This document shows, piece by piece, positions 3,032 through 26,015 of a stretch of 40,525 nt of DNA. This DNA is from a virus. The notes under the pieces were generated by a model. That model saw nothing but the letters and a program-made list of their open reading frames with translations. It was not told the origin of the DNA and did no database searches. The position numbers were made by a program, and so were the translations under genes. Location of the stretch: the UHGV virus genome UHGV-0146833; one strand, 5' to 3'. Within the stretch, counting starts at the first letter, position 1; every line of letters begins with the position of its first letter.

Positions 3032-3261
3032 TTAGCCTCCTTATTGTGCTGCAATTGCGACGAGAGAGATGCTGAATACCCCTGTGCTTCGTGTGTTAGC
3101 TCACACGCAATTTGAAGGAGCTTCCCGGCTTCTGATAGATAAATCGACGCCTCACAGCTGGATACTGTCCGATGGGCTGATGACACGAGCGCATAGACCT
3201 GAGCCAGACGTTCATCCAACGACTCCAGCAGGCCAACAGTGTTCATTTTTACCTGATTCAT
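3028..3261 (-). CDS. Hypothetical 77-aa protein, middle gene of the antirepressor operon
   Basis: ORF in track; 4-bp overlaps with the ORFs on both sides (translational coupling). Confidence 0.55.
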   Translation of the reverse strand: MNQVKMNTVGLLESLDERLAQVYALVSSAHRTVSSCEASIYLSEAGKLLQIACELTHEAQGYSASLSSQLQHNKEAK

Positions 3262-3422
3262 GCAGCCACCTCGCGCACCGGAATACGGGCAGACAATACC
3301 AGGACAAACCGGCTGGCGAACTGGCGACGAGCTTCCCGTTCAGATGACGCGATGGTGGAAAGATGATGGATATGTGACTTTTTGTCTGTGCGAACGACTG
3401 CCGCAAATTTGAATTTGAACAT
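3258..3422 (-). CDS. Icd-like small protein (54 aa), first gene of the antirepressor operon
   Basis: Not in ORF track (<60 aa). Hand translation: MFKFKFAAVVRTDKKSHIHHLSTIASSEREARRQFASRFVLVLSARIPVREVAA. GGAG RBS 8 nt upstream; stop overlaps next start (ATGA). The ASSER-AR-FVL-RIPV pattern resembles Icd-like cell-division inhibitors as I recall them. Confidence 0.5.
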   Translation of the reverse strand: MFKFKFAAVVRTDKKSHIHHLSTIASSEREARRQFASRFVLVLSARIPVREVAA

Positions 3423-3423
3423 G

Positions 3424-3719
3424 GTATGCACTCCGTTTAATTGGTCGTGCTACCACCAGAGTTCTCACGCTCTTGAATGGTGGTAGCCCAAGCGGGGGTG
3501 AGAATACCGGCAAACGAAGAAACCGGCCTGACCGAAGTCAGCCCCGCCTGAGCCACCATAAATCGGATATGCGCAGGTATATACACACAAAAAAACACGC
3601 TGGCGCGTGTTGTGCGCTTCGTTTATCCGGGTTCTCACGCCCGGCTGCGGGATTTACCGCAGCGGAGTAACTTTACCGTCAAAACGACGCACACGTCAAT
3701 AATTTGCAAAGACATTTTA
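3424..3719 (-). promoter_or_regulatory. Structured non-coding leader upstream of the antirepressor operon; candidate promoter plus c4/CA-like regulatory RNA
   Basis: ~300 bp without a credible ORF; several inverted repeats (GCTACCACCA...TGGTGGTAGC; CTGCGG...CCGCAG; ACACGC...GCGTGT) and a repeated GTTCTCACGC motif. RNA assignment is by analogy with P1/N15 immunity regions, not shown. Confidence 0.25.
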
Positions 3720-8000: not shown

Positions 8001-9027
8001 CGGTATTCCCTTTTCCTTCTGTGGCTGATTTCCGGTCATTATCCAGTGCGCAGGTGATTTTTGCCGCTGGGTACATGTTTACCAGTTGTTCCACAACATG
8101 AACCATGTTGTTAGCGGATACAGCGACAACCACAGCGTCAAAGCGTTTATCTTTTTTCGTGGCAAGCCAGATGGATGCACCAGTAGCAAAACCTTCTGTA
8201 ACAGCGATGTTTTGCGCCCCTTTCAGCTCACCGATAACAAAGCAGGCACCGACGAAATCGCCGCTGGTTACTGCGGTGGTCTGGTATTTCCCACCTTGTT
8301 TGTCGATTCGCTGCCAACCCACAATACGACCATCGTAACGACCGTCCAGATGAGCCAGAGGGATAGCCATATATGTGGTTGGCCCCCGGCTCCATTTCGC
8401 ACTGTCGTGACTGGTCACGCGACGCACATCACACGAATTAAAAACGTCACGAATACCTTTTTTAATCGCATATGGCCATGAGCCGTCTTCTGCAGGAGCA
8501 TGTTCCCACGCGCTGTGGAATGCCAGCCATCCCAGCAAACGTTCATGGTCCATTTGGTTGTTTTTCAGGTCATTAATTCGTTTTTGTTCTTCACGGCGAC
8601 GACGTGCTTCGGCCTGACGTTCTATTCTTGCCCGTTCTTCTTCCGGTTGTGCGACCACGGTCGCATTATTCCGTTGTTGCTCACGGCGATATTCAGAAAA
8701 CAGGAAGGAGAAACCGCTCCATGAGCCAGCATCGCTGCCTTTATGGACGAAGTTAATGAACGGGTAATCAATCCCTTTGCTGTGTTCCAGCCTGGAGTAA
8801 ATTTCTACGCGTCCTTTCAGGCTCTTTTCGAGAGCTTCTGGAGATGTTTTATTGTATGAAGAGTAACGCTCAACCCCCCCACGAGGGTTGAGTTGGATGT
8901 TGTCGGAACAGGCAGGCCAGTTGATACCAGCCATTTGTGCCAGCTCGGTTAGTTCATCCCGTGCTGCTTCAATTAGCGAGAACGGATCGCTGCCAAAGCG
9001 ATCCGCATAGAAATCGTTTAATGTCAT
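5032..9027 (-). CDS. repA: Replication protein RepA (primase-helicase multidomain, N15 RepA-like)
   Basis: 1331 aa (N15 RepA is about 1324 aa by recollection); Walker A-like GMGSGKST in the C-terminal half; position between the telN side and cB as in N15. Confidence 0.85.
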   Translation of the reverse strand: MTLNDFYADRFGSDPFSLIEAARDELTELAQMAGINWPACSDNIQLNPRGGVERYSSYNKTSPEALEKSLKGRVEIYSRLEHSKGIDYPFINFVHKGSDAGSWSGFSFLFSEYRREQQRNNATVVAQPEEERARIERQAEARRRREEQKRINDLKNNQMDHERLLGWLAFHSAWEHAPAEDGSWPYAIKKGIRDVFNSCDVRRVTSHDSAKWSRGPTTYMAIPLAHLDGRYDGRIVGWQRIDKQGGKYQTTAVTSGDFVGACFVIGELKGAQNIAVTEGFATGASIWLATKKDKRFDAVVVAVSANNMVHVVEQLVNMYPAAKITCALDNDRKSATEGKGNTGLRTGYEILSKFNDVRCVYPTFEDDPQMECSDFNDLHKLRGLRETARQLFATANRLKTGTDLLSLTLNRLKTIKRDNRRTFAKELLRAVDIGMLTCPVPNSPSDLFNMFCIVLREMGLENIYRATVKDHIARRLNKKCRIAQAPRSFSERITDPNKRPQHITYKRFETSVMTDDVLKYVQSLQGIVIVRAGMGSGKSTGLLRPLMHSSERGISVAHRVSLIGGLWEMMTEGKGVKADILHYQDPGYQEMAPYASKLTICINSIVKNCWQPLMRQHDYFGFDEATQGLRAVLSGRAMENPVAVFNTLIDALARTEQHPIMVDADANDLLVDLAELAMKRREELGLPAWLQIHVIELPVDVRNRETGEPIRVFYTEKDRIMTEVVKAVSDGEKIMLATDSSTFAEDVTATLRMHFPGKKFLCVNQKSKQDEEVDAFTSQPKVMVMKYDGLIYSPSISSGVSFEKKHFDRHFGMFCGEVVPSDAVQMLRRDRTAKEFIIGFDKARAKRETDPQKIERAFAQALLATAGMNGELTDVIFDGDRISMGVANTDFTRMKIKAAAIEASARNDYASNMICIMHSDGYKVSPLATDYAANDFGKELRKEARDIVWEQTLDLHLNTETPEESEREELLKKRALTLEEQAKLVRWDIENELKLPVEEGTLKFYFDGARDKIRRYETMLLDEVTARRYDREEAAINFTYAYRQTGQWQYFVVTAMTREQADDVFKAKFPGIIDYKVKATPAVEVGMRGFYALKSATLRQYFIDCGIDPETMTGEATQERLKFARDNLMTAERRDLLNNVLRIGGFMTPKGKPKVPEALFKNICDSLGLKTGKRRGRDGDKRPTLRFVEPESVAFMLDILAQRQEDGMTLKARKAEKSTTEVDRDLSLNIYMNGETRSTNTEEQDPPRSAISQALAVLPVAVPESWAMSALSGEELATMSSWSSASIAMTFASLYLTEFMDHLSSNELRRLREYITGNSSCSYEEQGAFYG
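8406..8419. repeat. Palindrome CGTGAC-TG-GTCACG inside repA (copy 2 of 3)
   Basis: Read directly. Confidence 0.7.
8650..8665. repeat. Palindrome TGCGACC-AC-GGTCGCA inside repA (centromere-like family, copy 1 of 6)
   Basis: Read directly; resembles the F-plasmid sopC inverted repeat (TGGGACCACGGTCCCA as I recall). Confidence 0.7.
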
Positions 9028-16018: not shown

Positions 16019-16047
16019 TTGGCAAAATGACGGTTTTTAGTTATTGT
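16019..16047 (+). promoter_or_regulatory. Sigma70-like promoter candidate TTGGCA-17-TATTGT, possible late promoter ahead of the methyltransferase-lysis-structural genes
   Basis: Hexamers and 17-bp spacing read directly; followed by hairpins and a terminator within ~80 bp, a layout reminiscent of lambdoid pR'/qut/tR'. Confidence 0.3.
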
Positions 16048-16085
16048 TTTGCTAAGTTGGGTTTTTTGTACCCAACAGCCAACAA

Positions 16086-16108
16086 GCCGCCTTTATGGCG
16101 GTTTTTTT
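16086..16108 (+). terminator. Rho-independent terminator (GCCGCC-TTTAT-GGCGG plus T7)
   Basis: GC stem and TTTTTTT run read directly; a further 10-bp-stem hairpin lies at 16126-16151. Confidence 0.55.
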
Positions 16109-18660: not shown

Positions 18661-18972
18661 ATGAAAATTTATATTGCCGGGCCAATGACGGGATATGAGA
18701 ACTTTAATCGTGACGCCTTTAATAAAGAGGCAGATCGTTTGTCACGACATGGTCACTCTGTCTTGAATCCAGCCACTTTGCCTAATGGTCTGACACAACG
18801 TGAATACATGGATATTTGCTTTGCAATGCTTCGTTGTGCTGATGCTATTTTGATGCTTCCTGGCTGGAAAGCGTCTGCTGGAGCAACTGCTGAGTATCAT
18901 TACGCATACAAGATGGAGATGCCGGTATTCACTACGCTGAATTACCCGCCAGCTTGTTCCTCTGTAGCATAA
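18661..18972 (+). CDS. DUF4406-like protein (nucleoside 2-deoxyribosyltransferase-like fold), 103 aa
   Basis: N-terminal MKIYIAGPMTGY...N-RD-F pattern as I recall for this family; family assignment from memory. Confidence 0.5.
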   Translation: MKIYIAGPMTGYENFNRDAFNKEADRLSRHGHSVLNPATLPNGLTQREYMDICFAMLRCADAILMLPGWKASAGATAEYHYAYKMEMPVFTTLNYPPACSSVA

Positions 18973-18992: not shown

Positions 18993-19008
18993 TGCGACCG
19001 TGGTCGCA
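18993..19008. repeat. Palindrome TGCGACC-GT-GGTCGCA (centromere-like family, copy 4 of 6)
   Basis: Read directly, 20 bp after the stop of gene 18661..18972. Confidence 0.7.
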
Positions 19009-19020
19009 CATTAAATACCG

Positions 19021-19288
19021 CGCTGTATCGTCGCTGTATTCCCGCATTAACCATGACCGTAGCCCGACGGGGAACTCATCTGCGCGAGTGTGCGGAAATA
19101 ATCAAAAACGATGCACACCGGGTTTTTACCGCGCTAATGATTCGCGGGTTTGCCCCTAACGCTCGCCAGTCCTGTGCGAGGGTGGAAGAAACAGGGCATG
19201 TATTCAGGAGCGTGCGACCGTGGTCGCACGGTATCTTTGTCAGGAGGTTTTGATGAAAGAGTTGCAAAAAATTAATTCAATAATGGAA
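19021..19288 (+). repeat. Direct repeat copy 1 (~268 bp, ~96% identical to 20804-21071); contains palindrome copy 5 (19213-19228), an RBS and the first 12 codons of gene 19253
   Basis: Base-by-base alignment of the two copies at a constant offset of 1783 bp. Confidence 0.85.
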
Positions 19289-20113
19289 AGGTTAAGTGCT
19301 CTTGAGCGTAAGCAGGACGATTGTGGAAAGCTGTGTGTTGAAAAGCAAAATGAGCTTTACCGGGGATTTTTTACAATCGTAAGTGAGCTGATGCCAATTG
19401 TTAATAACTGCCTAATGACATCCAGATTTTTTAATGTCGGTGCTACTACATCCAGAAAATTTACTGTGAAAATTCAAGAAAGAGTTTCTGGTAGTGTGAC
19501 AAGAGAGATGGCTGAACAGTTTGTGGCAATGAGTAATAAAACAAAAAGAAAAAAGGCATTGCTTGTAACAGTAAATCAGCTTTCAGGGCGCGTTGACTTT
19601 CAGGTCAGACAGGGTGGGCGTGTACTGGTAAACGATGCGTTCGTTGGACGTTGCTTTAGTCCTTACTCGATGAAATATGATGTTGATGCAGATGATCAGG
19701 ATATCAGCATTTCCTGGAAATCTGAGACAGCAGGGATTGTATTAACAGCAGAGTTGTTGAGTGATGATAAAAATGATGGCCAGCATCATTTGGACGAAAA
19801 AAATCATATTTCTGAAATTTGTATGAAGCCACGTAGTGGAATGACTTTATTGTCGCGAACTCTTGCTGCTGGCTTTTCTGCAACGGAGAAACGTGTGCTT
19901 CTGGTAGTGCCTGAAGATGCAGATATTCGTCCACTGAATGGCTGTGATGTTATTAGTGCAAAAACATTGCATACCCGCATCATGCCTGTACCGGATGTGG
20001 TCATCATTGATGATGTTGAGAAATGCAAGTCTGTTTCCTCAACTGCCACAATCAAACGAATTTTACGTTGTAGCTCGTCGGCTGTTGTATTCCGGAAGCA
20101 GTTACATAACTAA
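19253..20113 (+). CDS. Hypothetical soluble protein (286 aa), no recognised domain; AT-rich cassette gene
   Basis: ATG with AGGAGG RBS (internal M of track ORF 19220..20113); AT-rich relative to flanking phage genes. Confidence 0.7.
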   Translation: MKELQKINSIMERLSALERKQDDCGKLCVEKQNELYRGFFTIVSELMPIVNNCLMTSRFFNVGATTSRKFTVKIQERVSGSVTREMAEQFVAMSNKTKRKKALLVTVNQLSGRVDFQVRQGGRVLVNDAFVGRCFSPYSMKYDVDADDQDISISWKSETAGIVLTAELLSDDKNDGQHHLDEKNHISEICMKPRSGMTLLSRTLAAGFSATEKRVLLVVPEDADIRPLNGCDVISAKTLHTRIMPVPDVVIIDDVEKCKSVSSTATIKRILRCSSSAVVFRKQLHN

Positions 20114-20236
20114 CCAGTTTTGTTTTGCAGAACATCCTCAACTAAAAGCTTATAGAAAGAGAGCCTGAGATATTTTTTCTGTCTCTCGTAGTTGTTTATT
20201 TTTCTCGAACAGGCTTACAACTTACAGGATATAAAC

Positions 20237-20686
20237 ATGCAAGAAGAAGCAAATAAAATTCTTGTTGATTTATTGAAGAAGGCCAGCGATGGAATTGATT
20301 CCGCCATTGCATTCAGTCAGGCTCAGATTCCGGATGTTGTTCATCAGTTGCTGGTATGGAATATGGTTGATAGCCTGATTAAAACATTAATAGCCATTTC
20401 AACAATCCCGCTGGTTTTCTGGTTTATGAAAAAACAGTACCAAAAAGTTGAAATTGGTATATTCGATAATGAAGGACGCTCATGTGATAATGGACAGCCT
20501 AAATACAAACCGACTATGATTTGGGAAAGTGACGGTAGGTTAAGTGGTTTTGTCTTGCCATTAGTAGCACTTTTTATTCTATGGTTCAGTTTTATTATTG
20601 CTGTAGTAACCAATATGACATGGTTAAAAATCTGGTTGGCACCTAAGTTATATCTAATCGAATACGCAGCATCACTAATTAAATAG
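20237..20686 (+). CDS. Hypothetical membrane protein with two predicted TM helices (149 aa)
   Basis: Hydrophobic segments LIKTLIAISTIPLVFWFM and FVLPLVALFILWFSFIIAVV; internal ATG of track ORF 20192 (which begins with TTG). Confidence 0.6.
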   Translation: MQEEANKILVDLLKKASDGIDSAIAFSQAQIPDVVHQLLVWNMVDSLIKTLIAISTIPLVFWFMKKQYQKVEIGIFDNEGRSCDNGQPKYKPTMIWESDGRLSGFVLPLVALFILWFSFIIAVVTNMTWLKIWLAPKLYLIEYAASLIK

Positions 20687-20803
20687 TCCATTACAAAAGC
20701 CATTCGCTACTGAGTGGCTTTGATAATGGCTTATACCCTGCACGGGATAACTTAACTGATATCCCTTTTAACGGATAAAGGTATTCAAGCCTGACACATC
20801 ATG

Positions 20804-21071
20804 CGCTGCATCGTCGCCGTATTTCCGCATTAACCATGACCGTAGCCCGACGGGGAACTCCTCTGCGCGAGTGTGCGGAAATAATCAAAAACGATGCACA
20901 CCGGGTTTTTACCGCGCTAATGATTCGCGGGTTTGTCCCTCATGCTCGCCAGTCCTGTGCGAGGGTGGAAGAAACAGGGCATGTATTCAGGAGCGTGCGA
21001 CCGTGGTCACACGGTATCTTTGTCAGGAGGTTGTGATGAAAGAGTCGCAGAAATTTAATTCAATAATGGAA
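20804..21071 (+). repeat. Direct repeat copy 2; contains degenerate palindrome TGCGACC-GT-GGTCACA (20996-21011, copy 6)
   Basis: Aligned to copy 1; ~10 substitutions. Confidence 0.85.
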
Positions 21072-21146
21072 CGATTCTGTTCTCCTGAGCGAGAGGCTTA
21101 CAACATGCATTCATTGAGCGCCTGTTGTAATATCGCCAAACATTAA
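21036..21146 (+). pseudogene. 36-aa ORF whose first 13 codons (MKESQKFNSIMER) are homologous to the N-terminus of gene 19253; probable remnant or short alternative gene headed by repeat copy 2
   Basis: Shared RBS and N-terminal codons within the direct repeat, diverging immediately after the repeat boundary. Confidence 0.3.
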
Positions 21147-21278
21147 TCAGGTGCGCGAGATGTCGGCTAATACTGACCCTGACGAAATGTGACGCTGCTT
21201 TAATCTGAAAGATGGTGCAGACGGCCTATAGTTCGCATCCATTCCTGATTACCCGATTCAAGTTGATGAGACAGAAAC

Positions 21279-21524
21279 ATGACAGCTGCTAAAGAGCAGA
21301 TTGAATATGAGCTAAATGAATTCTTCGCGTCCGCCCTTGGTGATGTGTTTAAAAGTTGCCGACTGGCTGAAAGCGTATCGGATTACCAGATCTCTACTGT
21401 TAGTTTTCCAACGGAAAAAAACGCCTGGTTGGAGCTTGGTGAATTACCCGTGATTATCGAGTTGTCTAACGGACGTCGCTTTGAGATTAGTGCGTCTGAA
21501 TGGTTGCAGATCACACCGCTTTAA
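21279..21524 (+). CDS. Hypothetical protein (81 aa) upstream of cos
   Basis: ORF in track; function unknown. Confidence 0.45.
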   Translation: MTAAKEQIEYELNEFFASALGDVFKSCRLAESVSDYQISTVSFPTEKNAWLELGELPVIIELSNGRRFEISASEWLQITPL

Positions 21525-21596
21525 ATTAAGCCCGCTGCTCACCTTGGCTACAGGCATTCGCTAGTGGCTGGGTCCTTTCCGGCGATCCGACAGACT

Positions 21597-21788
21597 ACGG
21601 GGCGGAAGGCGCGCGGGTTTTCGCTATTTATGAAAATTTTCCGGTTTAAGGCGTTTCCGTTCTTCTTCTCCGTAACTTCATGTTTTTATTTAAAACACCC
21701 CCTGAAAAGAAAGGAAACGACAGATGCTGAAAACGGGCTTTTTGGCCTTTGTCGTTTCCTTTCTCTGTTTTTGTCCGTGGAATGAACA
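21597..21788. other. cos site: cosN around 21600-21611 and lambda-like cosB (terminase binding region) up to the Nu1 start
   Basis: Segment CGCGGGTTTTCGCTATTTATGAAAATTTTCCGGTTTAAGGCGTTTCCG... matches the remembered left end of lambda; the 12 nt corresponding to the cohesive end read GGGCGGAAGGCG here versus GGGCGGCGACCT recalled for lambda. Confidence 0.75.
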
Positions 21789-22308
21789 ATGGAAGTCAAC
21801 AAAAAGCAGCTGGCTGATATTTTCGGTGCGAGTATCCGTACCATTCAGAACTGGCAGGAGCAGGGAATGCCCGTTCTGCGAGGCGGTGGCAAGGGTAATG
21901 AGGTGCTTTATGATTCTGCCGCCGTCATAAAATGGTATGCCGAAAGGGATGCTGAAATTGAGAACGAAAAGCTGCGCCGGGAGGTTGAAGAACTGCGGCT
22001 GGCCAGCGAGGCAGATCTTCACCCCGGAACACTTGAATTTGAGCGCCATCGCCTGACTCGTGCTCAGGCGACGGCGCAGGAACTGAAAAATGCCAAAGAA
22101 TCGGCTGAAGTGGTGGAAACCGCATTCTGTACTTTCGTGCTGTCGCGTATAGCAAGGGAAATATCCAGTATTCTCGACGGTATTCCTCTGTCGGTGCAGC
22201 GACGTTTTCCTGAGCTGGATAACCGGCATATTGATTTCCTGAAACGGGATATCATCAAAGCCATGAACAAAGCAGCCGCGCTGGATGAACTGATACCGGG
22301 GTTGCTGA

Positions 22309-22334
<26 letters not shown>
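21789..22334 (+). CDS. nu1: Terminase small subunit Nu1
   Basis: 181 aa, near-identical to remembered lambda Nu1 (MEVNKKQLADIFGASIRTIQNWQEQGMPVLRGGGKGNEVLYD...). Confidence 0.95.

Positions 22335-26015
<3,681 letters not shown>

Follow-up and report, generated by a model that had tools for sequence, protein, structure and literature searches.

The window analysed here is a viral DNA of 40,525 nucleotides (UHGV virus genome UHGV-0146833) and is, on sequence grounds, an N15-like linear phage-plasmid. Its closest relative, PhiR46_1, is ~97% identical and has telL/telR, a protelomerase and ParA/ParB, the ParB being 74% identical to N15 SopB. At its end (40525) the window has not yet reached the position that sopAB occupies in the relatives, and the cognate SopB is seen in near-identical relatives only. 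Our attention centers on the variable interval that begins past the DUF4406 gene and closes at the cosQ-like sequence, with all relatives aligning again from 21570 onward. The 12-nt cosN end GGGCGGAAGGCG was placed at about 21600-21611 by comparison of the window sequence with the N15 ends. N15 has other genes at the same position, a dcm methylase and gp59. The features of the interval are as follows.

18661..18972, + strand: DUF4406 gene (Pfam PF14359, E=3.7e-34), the final conserved late gene 5' of the variable interval; it corresponds to N15 gene 57, which is annotated as DUF4406.
18993..19008, no strand: IR site, perfect palindrome TGCGACC-GT-GGTCGCA, 11 bp 5' of repeat copy 1.
19020..19308, + strand: direct repeat copy 1, comprising element part B (19020 to ~19198), an IR site, a ribosome-binding site and codons 1-18 of the 286-aa gene.
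19213..19228, no strand: IR site TGCGACCGTGGTCGCA, perfect, 24 bp 5' of the start codon of the 286-aa gene; also a terminator-like hairpin in the consensus scan.
19253..20113, + strand: gene for a 286-aa soluble orphan protein (phrog_2571) with a predicted N-terminal coiled coil, beta-rich middle and C-terminal RecA-like domain.
20237..20686, + strand: gene for a membrane protein of 149 aa with two TM segments (phrog_3054), from a broad phage family.
20688..20802, + strand: element part A, beginning 2 nt past the 149-aa stop codon, with a 42-nt hairpin (20688-20729) inside.
20803..21091, + strand: direct repeat copy 2, comprising part B, a degenerate IR, a ribosome-binding site and an 18-codon gene remnant.
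20996..21011, no strand: degenerate IR TGCGACCGTGGTCACA, one mismatch, with one half-site altered at position 4.
21036..21146, + strand: 36-aa ORF headed by copy 2, a remnant of a diverged 286-aa-family gene.
21279..21524, + strand: 81-aa hypothetical ORF, common to lambda-like chromosomal prophages.
21570..21611, + strand: cosQ-like sequence and cosN, the right-hand limit of the variable interval.

The two repeats span 289 nt in direct orientation with 94% identity, and each presents an AGGAGG ribosome-binding site. The first-pass annotation had described repeats of ~268 bp and ~96% identity; their existence stands, while they prove slightly longer and slightly less alike. It had the repeats bracketing genes 19253-20113 and 20237-20686 between the lysis genes and cos, and both ORFs are confirmed. 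Of the palindrome and ribosome-binding site that it assigned to each repeat, the latter is indeed in both, and the palindrome is perfect in copy 1 and carries one mismatch in copy 2. Also borne out are its description of a soluble protein with a two-TM companion (we found no hydrophobic segment in the 286-aa protein and two in the 149-aa protein, at ~43-65 and 100-132) and its view that copy 2 heads merely a 36-aa remnant, whose homology with the 286-aa gene covers the first 18 codons. The same remnant is found in chromosomal lambda-like prophages without the cassette. The 81-aa ORF, for which Pfam, PHROGs and NCBIfam gave no family match, is missing in most N15-like relatives, which are without window 20974-21569.

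The repeat body was matched in 328 phage records and in 3181 of 5426 (59%) complete E. coli genomes; every copy in viral contigs (123/123) sits 3' of Rz and 5' of Nu1/TerL, in late-operon orientation. Judged by this spread among lambdoids, the repeat body is a non-coding element common in these phages and not specific to the cassette. The assignment as non-coding follows from the fate of a 66-aa ORF within the repeat (20836-21036), ruled out as a gene because in other phages 1-nt indels disrupt it and its ATG is lost. Part A runs directly into copy 2, the arrangement seen in ordinary lambdoid prophages (L022, L045). N15 is not among the matches listed for the element, and its IR4 begins 20 bp past gene 58.

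The nature of the palindrome, which had gone unrecognised, can be addressed by comparison with N15. The sequence GTGCGACC-NN-GGTCGCAC occurs six times in the window (8650, 11093, 15983, 18993, 19213 and 20996) against 0.4 expected by chance, five times perfectly and once with a single mismatch. Its core is identical to that of the N15 IR1-4 oligonucleotides (Table 4 in PMC7205306). The centromere sites of N15 and F differ at one position only, 4/4' (PMC2910045); the window sites carry C there, the N15 type, and position 4, where the two centromere sequences diverge, is also the altered base of the 20996 site. The locations correspond as well. Sites 8650 and 11093 have flanks in common with N15 IR1 and IR2. 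Site 15983 is followed by a promoter-like site and a terminator, as N15 IR3 likewise precedes annotated -35/-10 signals and a terminator upstream of gene 52. In N15, the stretch between genes 58 and 59, just 5' of cos, holds IR4, and sites 18993, 19213 and 20996 fall in the same interval. Each of the dispersed N15 locations, within repA, past Q, ahead of the late promoter and ahead of cos, has its match in the window. Because their sequence is identical to that of N15 IR1-4 and their positions match, the palindromes most likely act in plasmid partition; the palindrome is a known element, predicted here as an N15-type SopB centromere site.

The correspondence has its differences. N15 presents a single site at IR4, whereas in this lineage two perfect sites lie 220 bp from each other and a degenerate third accompanies them; furthermore, IR sites are joined here to the lambdoid non-coding element, a joining not seen in N15. 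The sopC locus of the F plasmid shows the same build (7-bp arms, 2-bp center) and is bound by a homologous ParB-family protein, but it has G at position 4/4' where N15 and the window have C (PMC2910045), and its ten copies stand in tandem while the window sites are dispersed. A SopB-independent role may exist, since the palindrome is predicted as a hairpin as well and perfect copies are found in lambdoid contigs without an IR3-like site.

We turn to what lies between the repeats. The two genes are AT-rich, as noted at first pass, with GC of 0.404 (286-aa gene) and 0.362 (149-aa gene), where the window as a whole has 0.505 and the terminase genes have 0.51-0.54; low values are found in the neighboring methylase (0.417) and DUF4406 (0.446) genes too. 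Among the 26 N15-like plasmids listed, synteny comparison found the cassette intact in 19, partly deleted in 6 and cleanly removed in 1, the deletions in these 7 of 26 affecting the cassette region and some being internal. This variability, together with the different genes of N15, agrees with the earlier proposal that the Rz-to-cos interval receives acquired accessory genes. The data support the cassette as acquired, dispensable cargo of this variable interval, and our verdict is ordinary mosaic cargo at a known hot spot. It is present in some close relatives and absent from others, and its base composition deviates, as in morons. The bor gene of lambda exemplifies such cargo in the lambdoid lysis-to-cos interval. 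Lambdoid morons of that interval are likewise non-essential, AT-rich and variably present at a fixed position with a hairpin after them; here the hairpin at 20688-20729 directly follows the cassette. The cassette differs from them in its late-operon orientation without a predicted promoter of its own, in being bracketed by a duplicated junction element, and in the demonstrated excision by recombination between the flanking copies. A consensus scan of the repeats and of 20114-20236 gave no sigma-70-like promoter, and the single promoter-like site nearby (20232-20259) spans the 149-aa start codon.

The cassette is lost when its two flanking repeats recombine. In the relative L006, which has one element only, this element is an exact chimera, identical to PhiR46 copy 1 on its 5' side and to copy 2 on its 3' side, and loss of the cassette therefore proceeded through the repeats. 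Exchange with prophages is suggested by the chromosomal prophage L022, which is colinear with window 20688-24000 at 97.5% identity and has the element, the degenerate IR, the remnant and the 81-aa ORF without the cassette. From this colinearity we infer that the cassette could be replaced or restored when the window recombines with relatives or with those integrated lambda-like prophages that have the element and the terminase region in common with it. The cassette is probably useful and not a mere passenger, as it is intact in 19 of the 26 listed plasmids and under purifying selection. With dN/dS values of 0.1-0.3, both of its ORFs qualify as real coding genes.

The reading that we favor, with a probability of roughly 0.6, treats the locus as a mosaic cargo slot of an N15-like linear phage-plasmid and not as a dedicated two-gene system. 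The two ~290-bp repeats would be two copies of the conserved non-coding element that lambdoids carry between Rz and cos, each copy ending in this lineage in a palindrome of the N15 IR family of SopB centromere sites that would serve partition. Between the copies, two unrelated accessory genes would ride as part of the late operon. The homology of the flanks allows the two copies to recombine and the cassette to be lost, and recombination with relatives and integrated lambda-like prophages would allow its exchange or return. Predicted partition sites, accessory cargo and a junction element conserved among lambdoids, which are usually treated separately, are joined at this locus. It offers a concrete case, with the recombinant in the public record, of direct repeats that let a phage-plasmid shed cargo, and the near-identity with integrated prophages from the element to the terminase suggests that cargo is traded across that boundary.

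The 286-aa protein is represented by 15 protein clusters, all from Escherichia and confined to N15-like phage-plasmids, and its gene shows dN/dS of 0.11-0.31 against more diverged relatives. An exhaustive HMMER search of 1.84 billion representatives for distant homologues returned only fragments and two weak partial relatives, and a sequence-profile search of the PDB gave nothing better than E>=0.35. Homology to N15 gp59, encoded at the same position, was considered and rejected, as no similarity was found. The structure model has a mean pLDDT of 48, with the middle poorly modelled and the C-terminal domain alone usable; this domain is predicted to adopt a RecA-like alpha/beta fold with a Walker B-like VVIIDD. 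The Walker A motif GxxxxGK[ST] is not present in the protein. The Walker A-like loop, KPRSGMT(LL), has Met in place of the lysine, invariant in 10/10 aligned homologues. We regard the protein as lineage-specific, with a modelled RecA-like domain that probably binds, and does not hydrolyse, nucleotide or nucleic acid.

The 149-aa protein belongs to a far-ranging family of 489 clusters across Enterobacteriaceae prophages, with relatives of 27-34% identity in virulent Vibrio, rV5-like and N4-like phages. The family is strongly conserved (dN/dS 0.14-0.27), and its C-terminal W-LKIWLAPKLYLIEYA motif is invariant. When the window is compared with its nearest relatives, dN/dS of the gene is ~0.8-1.1, with the changes concentrated in residues 74-117. 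Homologues of 70-73% identity adjoin sieB in the early-left operon of P22-like prophages, in a slot with varying neighbors (pentapeptide-repeat, HNH and Y8K6 proteins), and DNA homology to these copies spans exactly from start codon to stop codon. That slot differs from ours in belonging to an early operon of another phage type, the window cassette being in the late operon. The protein probably acts alone, at the inner membrane, in exclusion or in interaction with the host. A rival explanation of the locus makes it, on its own, a membrane-acting phage factor for superinfection exclusion, DNA-entry control or lysis timing, with the 286-aa gene as unrelated cargo. We hold this as possible though tentative: the breadth and conservation of the family in temperate and virulent phages, the invariant motif, the two TM helices and the sieB neighborhood argue for it, but Pfam, PHROGs, PDB sequences and BFVD folds gave no similarity to characterised exclusion, holin or spanin families. 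SieA, SieB, Cor, Imm and Sp were likewise without a sequence or fold match in Pfam, PHROGs, NCBIfam, PDB sequences and BFVD folds. Its one weak match is to a PHROG labelled 'membrane protein' (E=0.019), the structure model (mean pLDDT 67) had no informative BFVD fold match and the sequence no match in the PDB, and the literature search found no experimental data. Widespread, conserved and sieB-adjacent, the family taken singly would be cheap and reasonable to include in an exclusion screen.

The first-pass annotation had gone further and proposed that the two genes are one undescribed defence, abortive-infection or superinfection-exclusion system, in which a cytoplasmic effector or sensor works with a partner in the membrane. 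The AT-rich, variably present cargo, the sieB-adjacent homologues with their changing neighbors, the high dN/dS of the 149-aa gene among nearest relatives, with changes concentrated in residues 74-117, and the RecA-like domain speak for such a system; even so, we consider it unlikely. PADLOC-DB v2 gave no family at E<=1 for the 286-aa, 149-aa or 36-aa products, and Pfam and NCBIfam no match for the two proteins, which speaks against the proposed defence or exclusion module. A literature search with protein accessions, PHROG ids and PhiR46 found nothing. The profile and structure searches did yield the RecA-like fold of the 286-aa protein and, for either protein, no match that would give a function. 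The notion of a pair fares no better. The two genes do not keep company across lineages (15 clusters against 489), and no 286-aa homologue stood beside 149-aa homologues in the contexts read, P22-like prophages included. The two genes occur together in a narrow clade only, and the 149-aa gene spreads alone with ORF-exact boundaries, into virulent phages as well. The position inside the late operon without a predicted promoter and the missing Walker A lysine weigh on the same side. Taken together, the comparisons indicate that the two genes are not a pair, and nothing in them supports a two-gene defence system; the outcome on defence is mainly negative, and we advise against reporting the cassette as a candidate for one.

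Improbable, in our estimation, is a role of the 286-aa protein with the adjacent SopB sites or cos, for example in remodelling of the partition complex before packaging. This role would explain the restriction of the protein to N15-like phage-plasmids, and it is consistent with a start codon 24 bp from a perfect IR, with a gene immediately 5' of cos and the terminase genes, and with a coiled coil next to a RecA-like C-terminal domain. The evidence is nonetheless one of position only, the N15 gene at the same place is unrelated, and 7 of the 26 listed relatives, still recorded as plasmids, have the 286-aa gene truncated or deleted. A toxin-immunity pair, in which a toxin is secreted or released and a membrane protein gives immunity, is highly improbable: the toxin-immunity cassettes of Klebsiella telomere phages, N15-like themselves, are likewise accessory and superficially alike in their soluble-plus-membrane build with an inner-membrane immunity protein (PMC12042878), but the telocin locus runs from repA to the protelomerase gene and not from Rz to cos, the 286-aa protein has no bacteriocin-like homology or fold, and the 149-aa gene circulates without a toxin partner. 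Telocin cassettes encode bacteriocin-like toxins and an immunity protein with four predicted hydrophobic helices (PMC12042878), and no sequence or fold similarity was found between them and the window cassette.

Within the mosaic-slot reading, the junction element itself deserves a comment. Rfam covariance models gave no hit in the repeat region at gathering thresholds, and a relaxed search gave chance-level results only (E>1). Identity with the prophage Pas sRNAs was rejected from their locations, PasA, PasC and PasD flanking the esterase/holin region and PasB lying within the structural operon; AgvB and AsxR were set aside as the Rfam models for both had no match. One rather unlikely idea is that part B (~180 nt; 19020-19198 and 20803-20985) functions in lambdoid late operons as a structured cis-element or RNA, so far undescribed, and marks a boundary for cargo exchange, the position of its 3' hairpin being where N15-like phage-plasmids carry, or co-opted, the cos-proximal SopB site. 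The unannotated element is a modest side lead, and its frequency in complete E. coli genomes merits a dedicated RNA or cis-element study.

The best-supported reading of this locus is a mosaic cargo slot. Two lambdoid junction elements, each ending in a putative partition site, bracket two unrelated accessory genes, the 286-aa and 149-aa genes that together form the cassette. Recombination between the element copies removes the cassette, and exchange with relatives can probably swap it or bring it back.

This interval matches Escherichia phage PhiR46_1, the closest relative of the window, and ~26 non-mobilizable plasmids (roughly 34–91 kb; hosts E. coli, E. albertii, E. fergusonii and Shigella) at ~95–97% identity. 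The annotation of PhiR46_1 lists telL/telR, ParA/ParB, a protelomerase and a RepA-type primase alongside lambda-like genes for head and tail, which makes the window an N15-like linear phage-plasmid. With N15 it shares the gene order methylase, holin, lysozyme, Rz, DUF4406; the two differ in the stretch from DUF4406 to cos, which in N15 holds a dcm methylase and gp59, and a comparison of gp59 with the 286-aa protein found them unrelated. In the window, cosN lies at ~21600–21611 and Nu1 starts at 21789. An Rfam search places a C4 antisense RNA (82 bits) and an adjoining isrK Hfq-binding RNA (64 bits) on the minus strand at 3476–3663, a P1/P7-type antisense immunity RNA module within an N15-like phage-plasmid.

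The first-pass annotation had described direct repeats around two AT-rich genes, and a repeat search of the window confirms the observation. There is one long direct repeat (19020–19308 and 20803–21091) of 289 nt at 94% identity, and the GC content is 0.404 in the 286-aa gene and 0.362 in the 149-aa gene, compared with 0.505 for the window and 0.51–0.54 for the terminase genes. Hydropathy places two TM segments in the 149-aa protein and none in the 286-aa protein. The repeat belongs to a lambdoid non-coding element whose complete form is copy 2, starting at 20688, 2 nt past the stop codon of the 149-aa gene; copy 1 consists of part B only, without part A.

Features of the cassette and its flanking elements (window coordinates)
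19020–19198: part B of the element, copy 1
19253–20113: 286-aa ORF, between the repeat copies
20237–20686: 149-aa ORF, between the repeat copies
20688–20802: part A of the element, opening with a 42-nt hairpin (20688–20729)
20803 to ~20985: part B of the element, copy 2
21036–21146: 36-aa ORF headed by copy 2, its first 18 codons homologous to the 286-aa gene

Outside the N15-like clade, matches are confined to the repeat and extend to 328 phage records at 84–93% identity, among them Stx phages, Ayreon and 2B8. Part B is present in 3181 of 5426 complete E. coli genomes, with up to six per genome, and is essentially unannotated (no feature beneath the match in 14 of 15 among the matches listed). 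All 123 viral-contig copies lie between Rz and cos, co-oriented with the late genes: downstream of Rz in 112/112 and of lysozyme in 89/89, and upstream of Nu1 in 80/80 and of TerL in 67/67. Homology between phages ends at recurrent points (window 20803, ~20909, ~20980 and ~21013), the first of which is the exact start point of copy 1. Past the shared GGAAGAAAC motif there are at least seven differing continuations, one of them joined straight to cos. A 66-aa ORF readable in the element was rejected as a gene on account of 1-nt indels and the lack of an ATG in other phages. In the hairpin at 20688–20729 the T-run is on the minus strand (TTTTGTAATGG); the structure resembles a terminator of leftward transcription more than one serving the late operon.

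Part B folds more stably than its shuffles on the late strand (z = −3.7, compared with −2.5 on the other strand). In the RNAalifold consensus of 47 distinct copies, 98.8% of the cells are paired on the late strand compared with 87.2% for the same pairs on the other strand, as many changes are G-C to G-U. One consensus pair divides into U-A 23 and G-C 20. Double-sided compensatory cells number 28, whereas column shuffling yields 13.2 ± 2.1 and none of 500 shuffles attains 28. The count was made on the same alignment that gave the structure and among related sequences, for which reason the evidence for an RNA structure on the late strand is suggestive only. An Rfam search with the element returned no family match, and its identity as one of the Pas sRNAs was ruled out.

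The state of the cassette varies among relatives. It is intact in 19 plasmids. In others (L002 and L003 among them) loss of window 19837–20663 cuts the 286-aa gene short and takes out most of the 149-aa gene; in L004 the deletion runs from 19606 to ~21535 (window coordinates). L005 (NZ_LT906558.1) has a different allele past the inverted repeat (IR), a diverged, truncated N-terminus of the 286-aa family at 3059–3367. The cassette is absent from L006, where a single element has the 5′ side of PhiR46 copy 1 and the 3′ side of PhiR46 copy 2 (identical), the switch falling within the repeat. This chimeric element shows repeat-mediated excision of the cassette by homologous recombination between the two copies.

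In most relatives copy 2 is shorter and more diverged (172 bp, 88%) and is joined to cos by 40 bp; the long copy 2 of the window carries the 36-aa remnant and an 81-aa ORF. Window 20688–24000 (3.3 kb), spanning the element, the remnant ORF, the 81-aa ORF, cos and the terminase genes, is colinear at 96–97.5% identity with two E. coli chromosomal lambda-like prophages, L022 (NZ_CP124475.1) and L023 (NZ_OZ043763.1). These two prophages lack a cassette and have a decayed palindrome; in the viral contig L045 the arrangement is alike, except that the IR is perfect. We infer that exchange with such a prophage, at a point in part A or part B, produced the right junction of the window. The similarity points to recent exchange between the plasmid-prophage and integrated prophages.

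The window has six copies of the palindrome TGCGACC-NN-GGTCGCA, compared with 0.4 expected by chance: perfect ones at 8650, 11093, 15983, 18993 and 19213, and one with a single mismatch at 20996. Oligonucleotides for rebuilding the N15 centromere (IR1–IR4, bound by SopB) bear exactly the core GTGCGACC-NN-GGTCGCAC (PMC7205306 Table 4). The 20996 copy departs from the palindrome at position 4 in one of its half-sites, where N15 and F sites diverge; position 4/4′ is the sole difference between the N15 and F centromeres in the SopB-DNA structure paper (PMC2910045). In N15 one site is within repA (33480), another follows Q (35931), a third precedes the late promoter (41125) and the fourth, directly ahead of cos, is in the gap between genes 58 and 59 (45562). 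IR1 and IR2 have flanking sequence in common with window sites 8650 and 11093, respectively. IR3 is followed by annotated −35/−10 signals and a terminator, upstream of gene 52; window site 15983 is likewise followed by a promoter-like site (16019–16047) and a strong terminator (16084–16104), and this arrangement precedes the methylase and lysis genes. The interval of the single IR4 of N15 is occupied in the window by three sites (18993, 19213 and 20996), and in the window clade two of these (18993 and 19213) are perfect and 220 bp apart. In each cassette-bearing member of the clade examined (L001, L002, L004, L005 and L011), this perfect pair stands on either side of copy 1 part B.

PhiR46_1 ParB and N15 SopB share 74% identity; as the window ends before sopAB, its cognate SopB is predicted from relatives. 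Sequence identity and matching positions argue that the palindromes are N15-type centromere sites with a putative partition role. Ravin et al. reportedly tied N15 IR2 and IR3 to late transcription in 2008, and by analogy an effect of the palindromes on late transcription is possible. Perfect N15-type palindromes also terminate the element in lambdoid contigs (L027 at 8819, L028 at 3035, L064 at 1678), with no IR3-like site in ~8 kb upstream, and phage 2B8 (at 2817) has the symmetric two-arm variant TGCAACC-GT-GGTTGCA. For these reasons the hairpin may serve some function that does not require SopB, or SopB may have co-opted it.

The cassette had been proposed as acquired accessory cargo and, further, as a two-gene defence system. 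The first part stands, the cassette being present, deleted or excised among relatives; the second fails the co-occurrence test, and the analysis found no evidence for a defence system of two genes. The two genes are not a pair: the 286-aa protein forms 15 clusters at 90% identity, all from Escherichia, compared with 489 clusters of the 149-aa protein from Escherichia, Salmonella, Citrobacter, Cronobacter, Klebsiella and Pantoea, and the genes do not co-occur across lineages. For the 149-aa protein on its own, a defence function retains some probability. It is unlikely that the two genes are a toxin-immunity pair of the telocin kind, as the telocin locus is flanked by repA and the protelomerase gene and telocin toxins resemble bacteriocins (PMC12042878).

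For the 286-aa protein, clusters on sufficiently long contigs mostly lie on ones of ~46–49 kb, the size of the N15-like plasmids, and exhaustive searching of 1.84 billion representatives with HMMER turned up nothing further beyond fragments and two weak, partial relatives. Its PHROG match is phrog_2571 (function unknown); Pfam, PADLOC and NCBIfam have no match to it. Its Walker A-like loop KPRSGMT invariably lacks the lysine, and VVIIDD resembles a Walker B motif. The dN/dS of 0.11–0.31 against more diverged relatives says that the gene is real and constrained. In P0144, a weak relative, the central beta domain leads and the coiled-coil-like segment stands at the end, suggesting that the order of domains is permuted.

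Structure and sequence searches with the 149-aa protein gave no functional match. In P22-like prophages its homologue lies directly after N and sieB in the early-left operon, with varying neighbours, and the DNA homology with these copies extends exactly from start codon to stop codon. Virulent Vibrio, rV5-like and N4-like phages carry relatives at 27–34% identity. Both termini are strongly conserved in the family (dN/dS 0.14–0.27); between the window and its nearest relatives dN/dS is ~0.8–1.1, with changes clustered in residues 74–117, mainly the loop linking the two TM helices and the beginning of TM2. Against PhiR46_1 there are 18.5 non-synonymous and 4.5 synonymous changes, and the window allele has lost a Trp conserved in 90% of the family.
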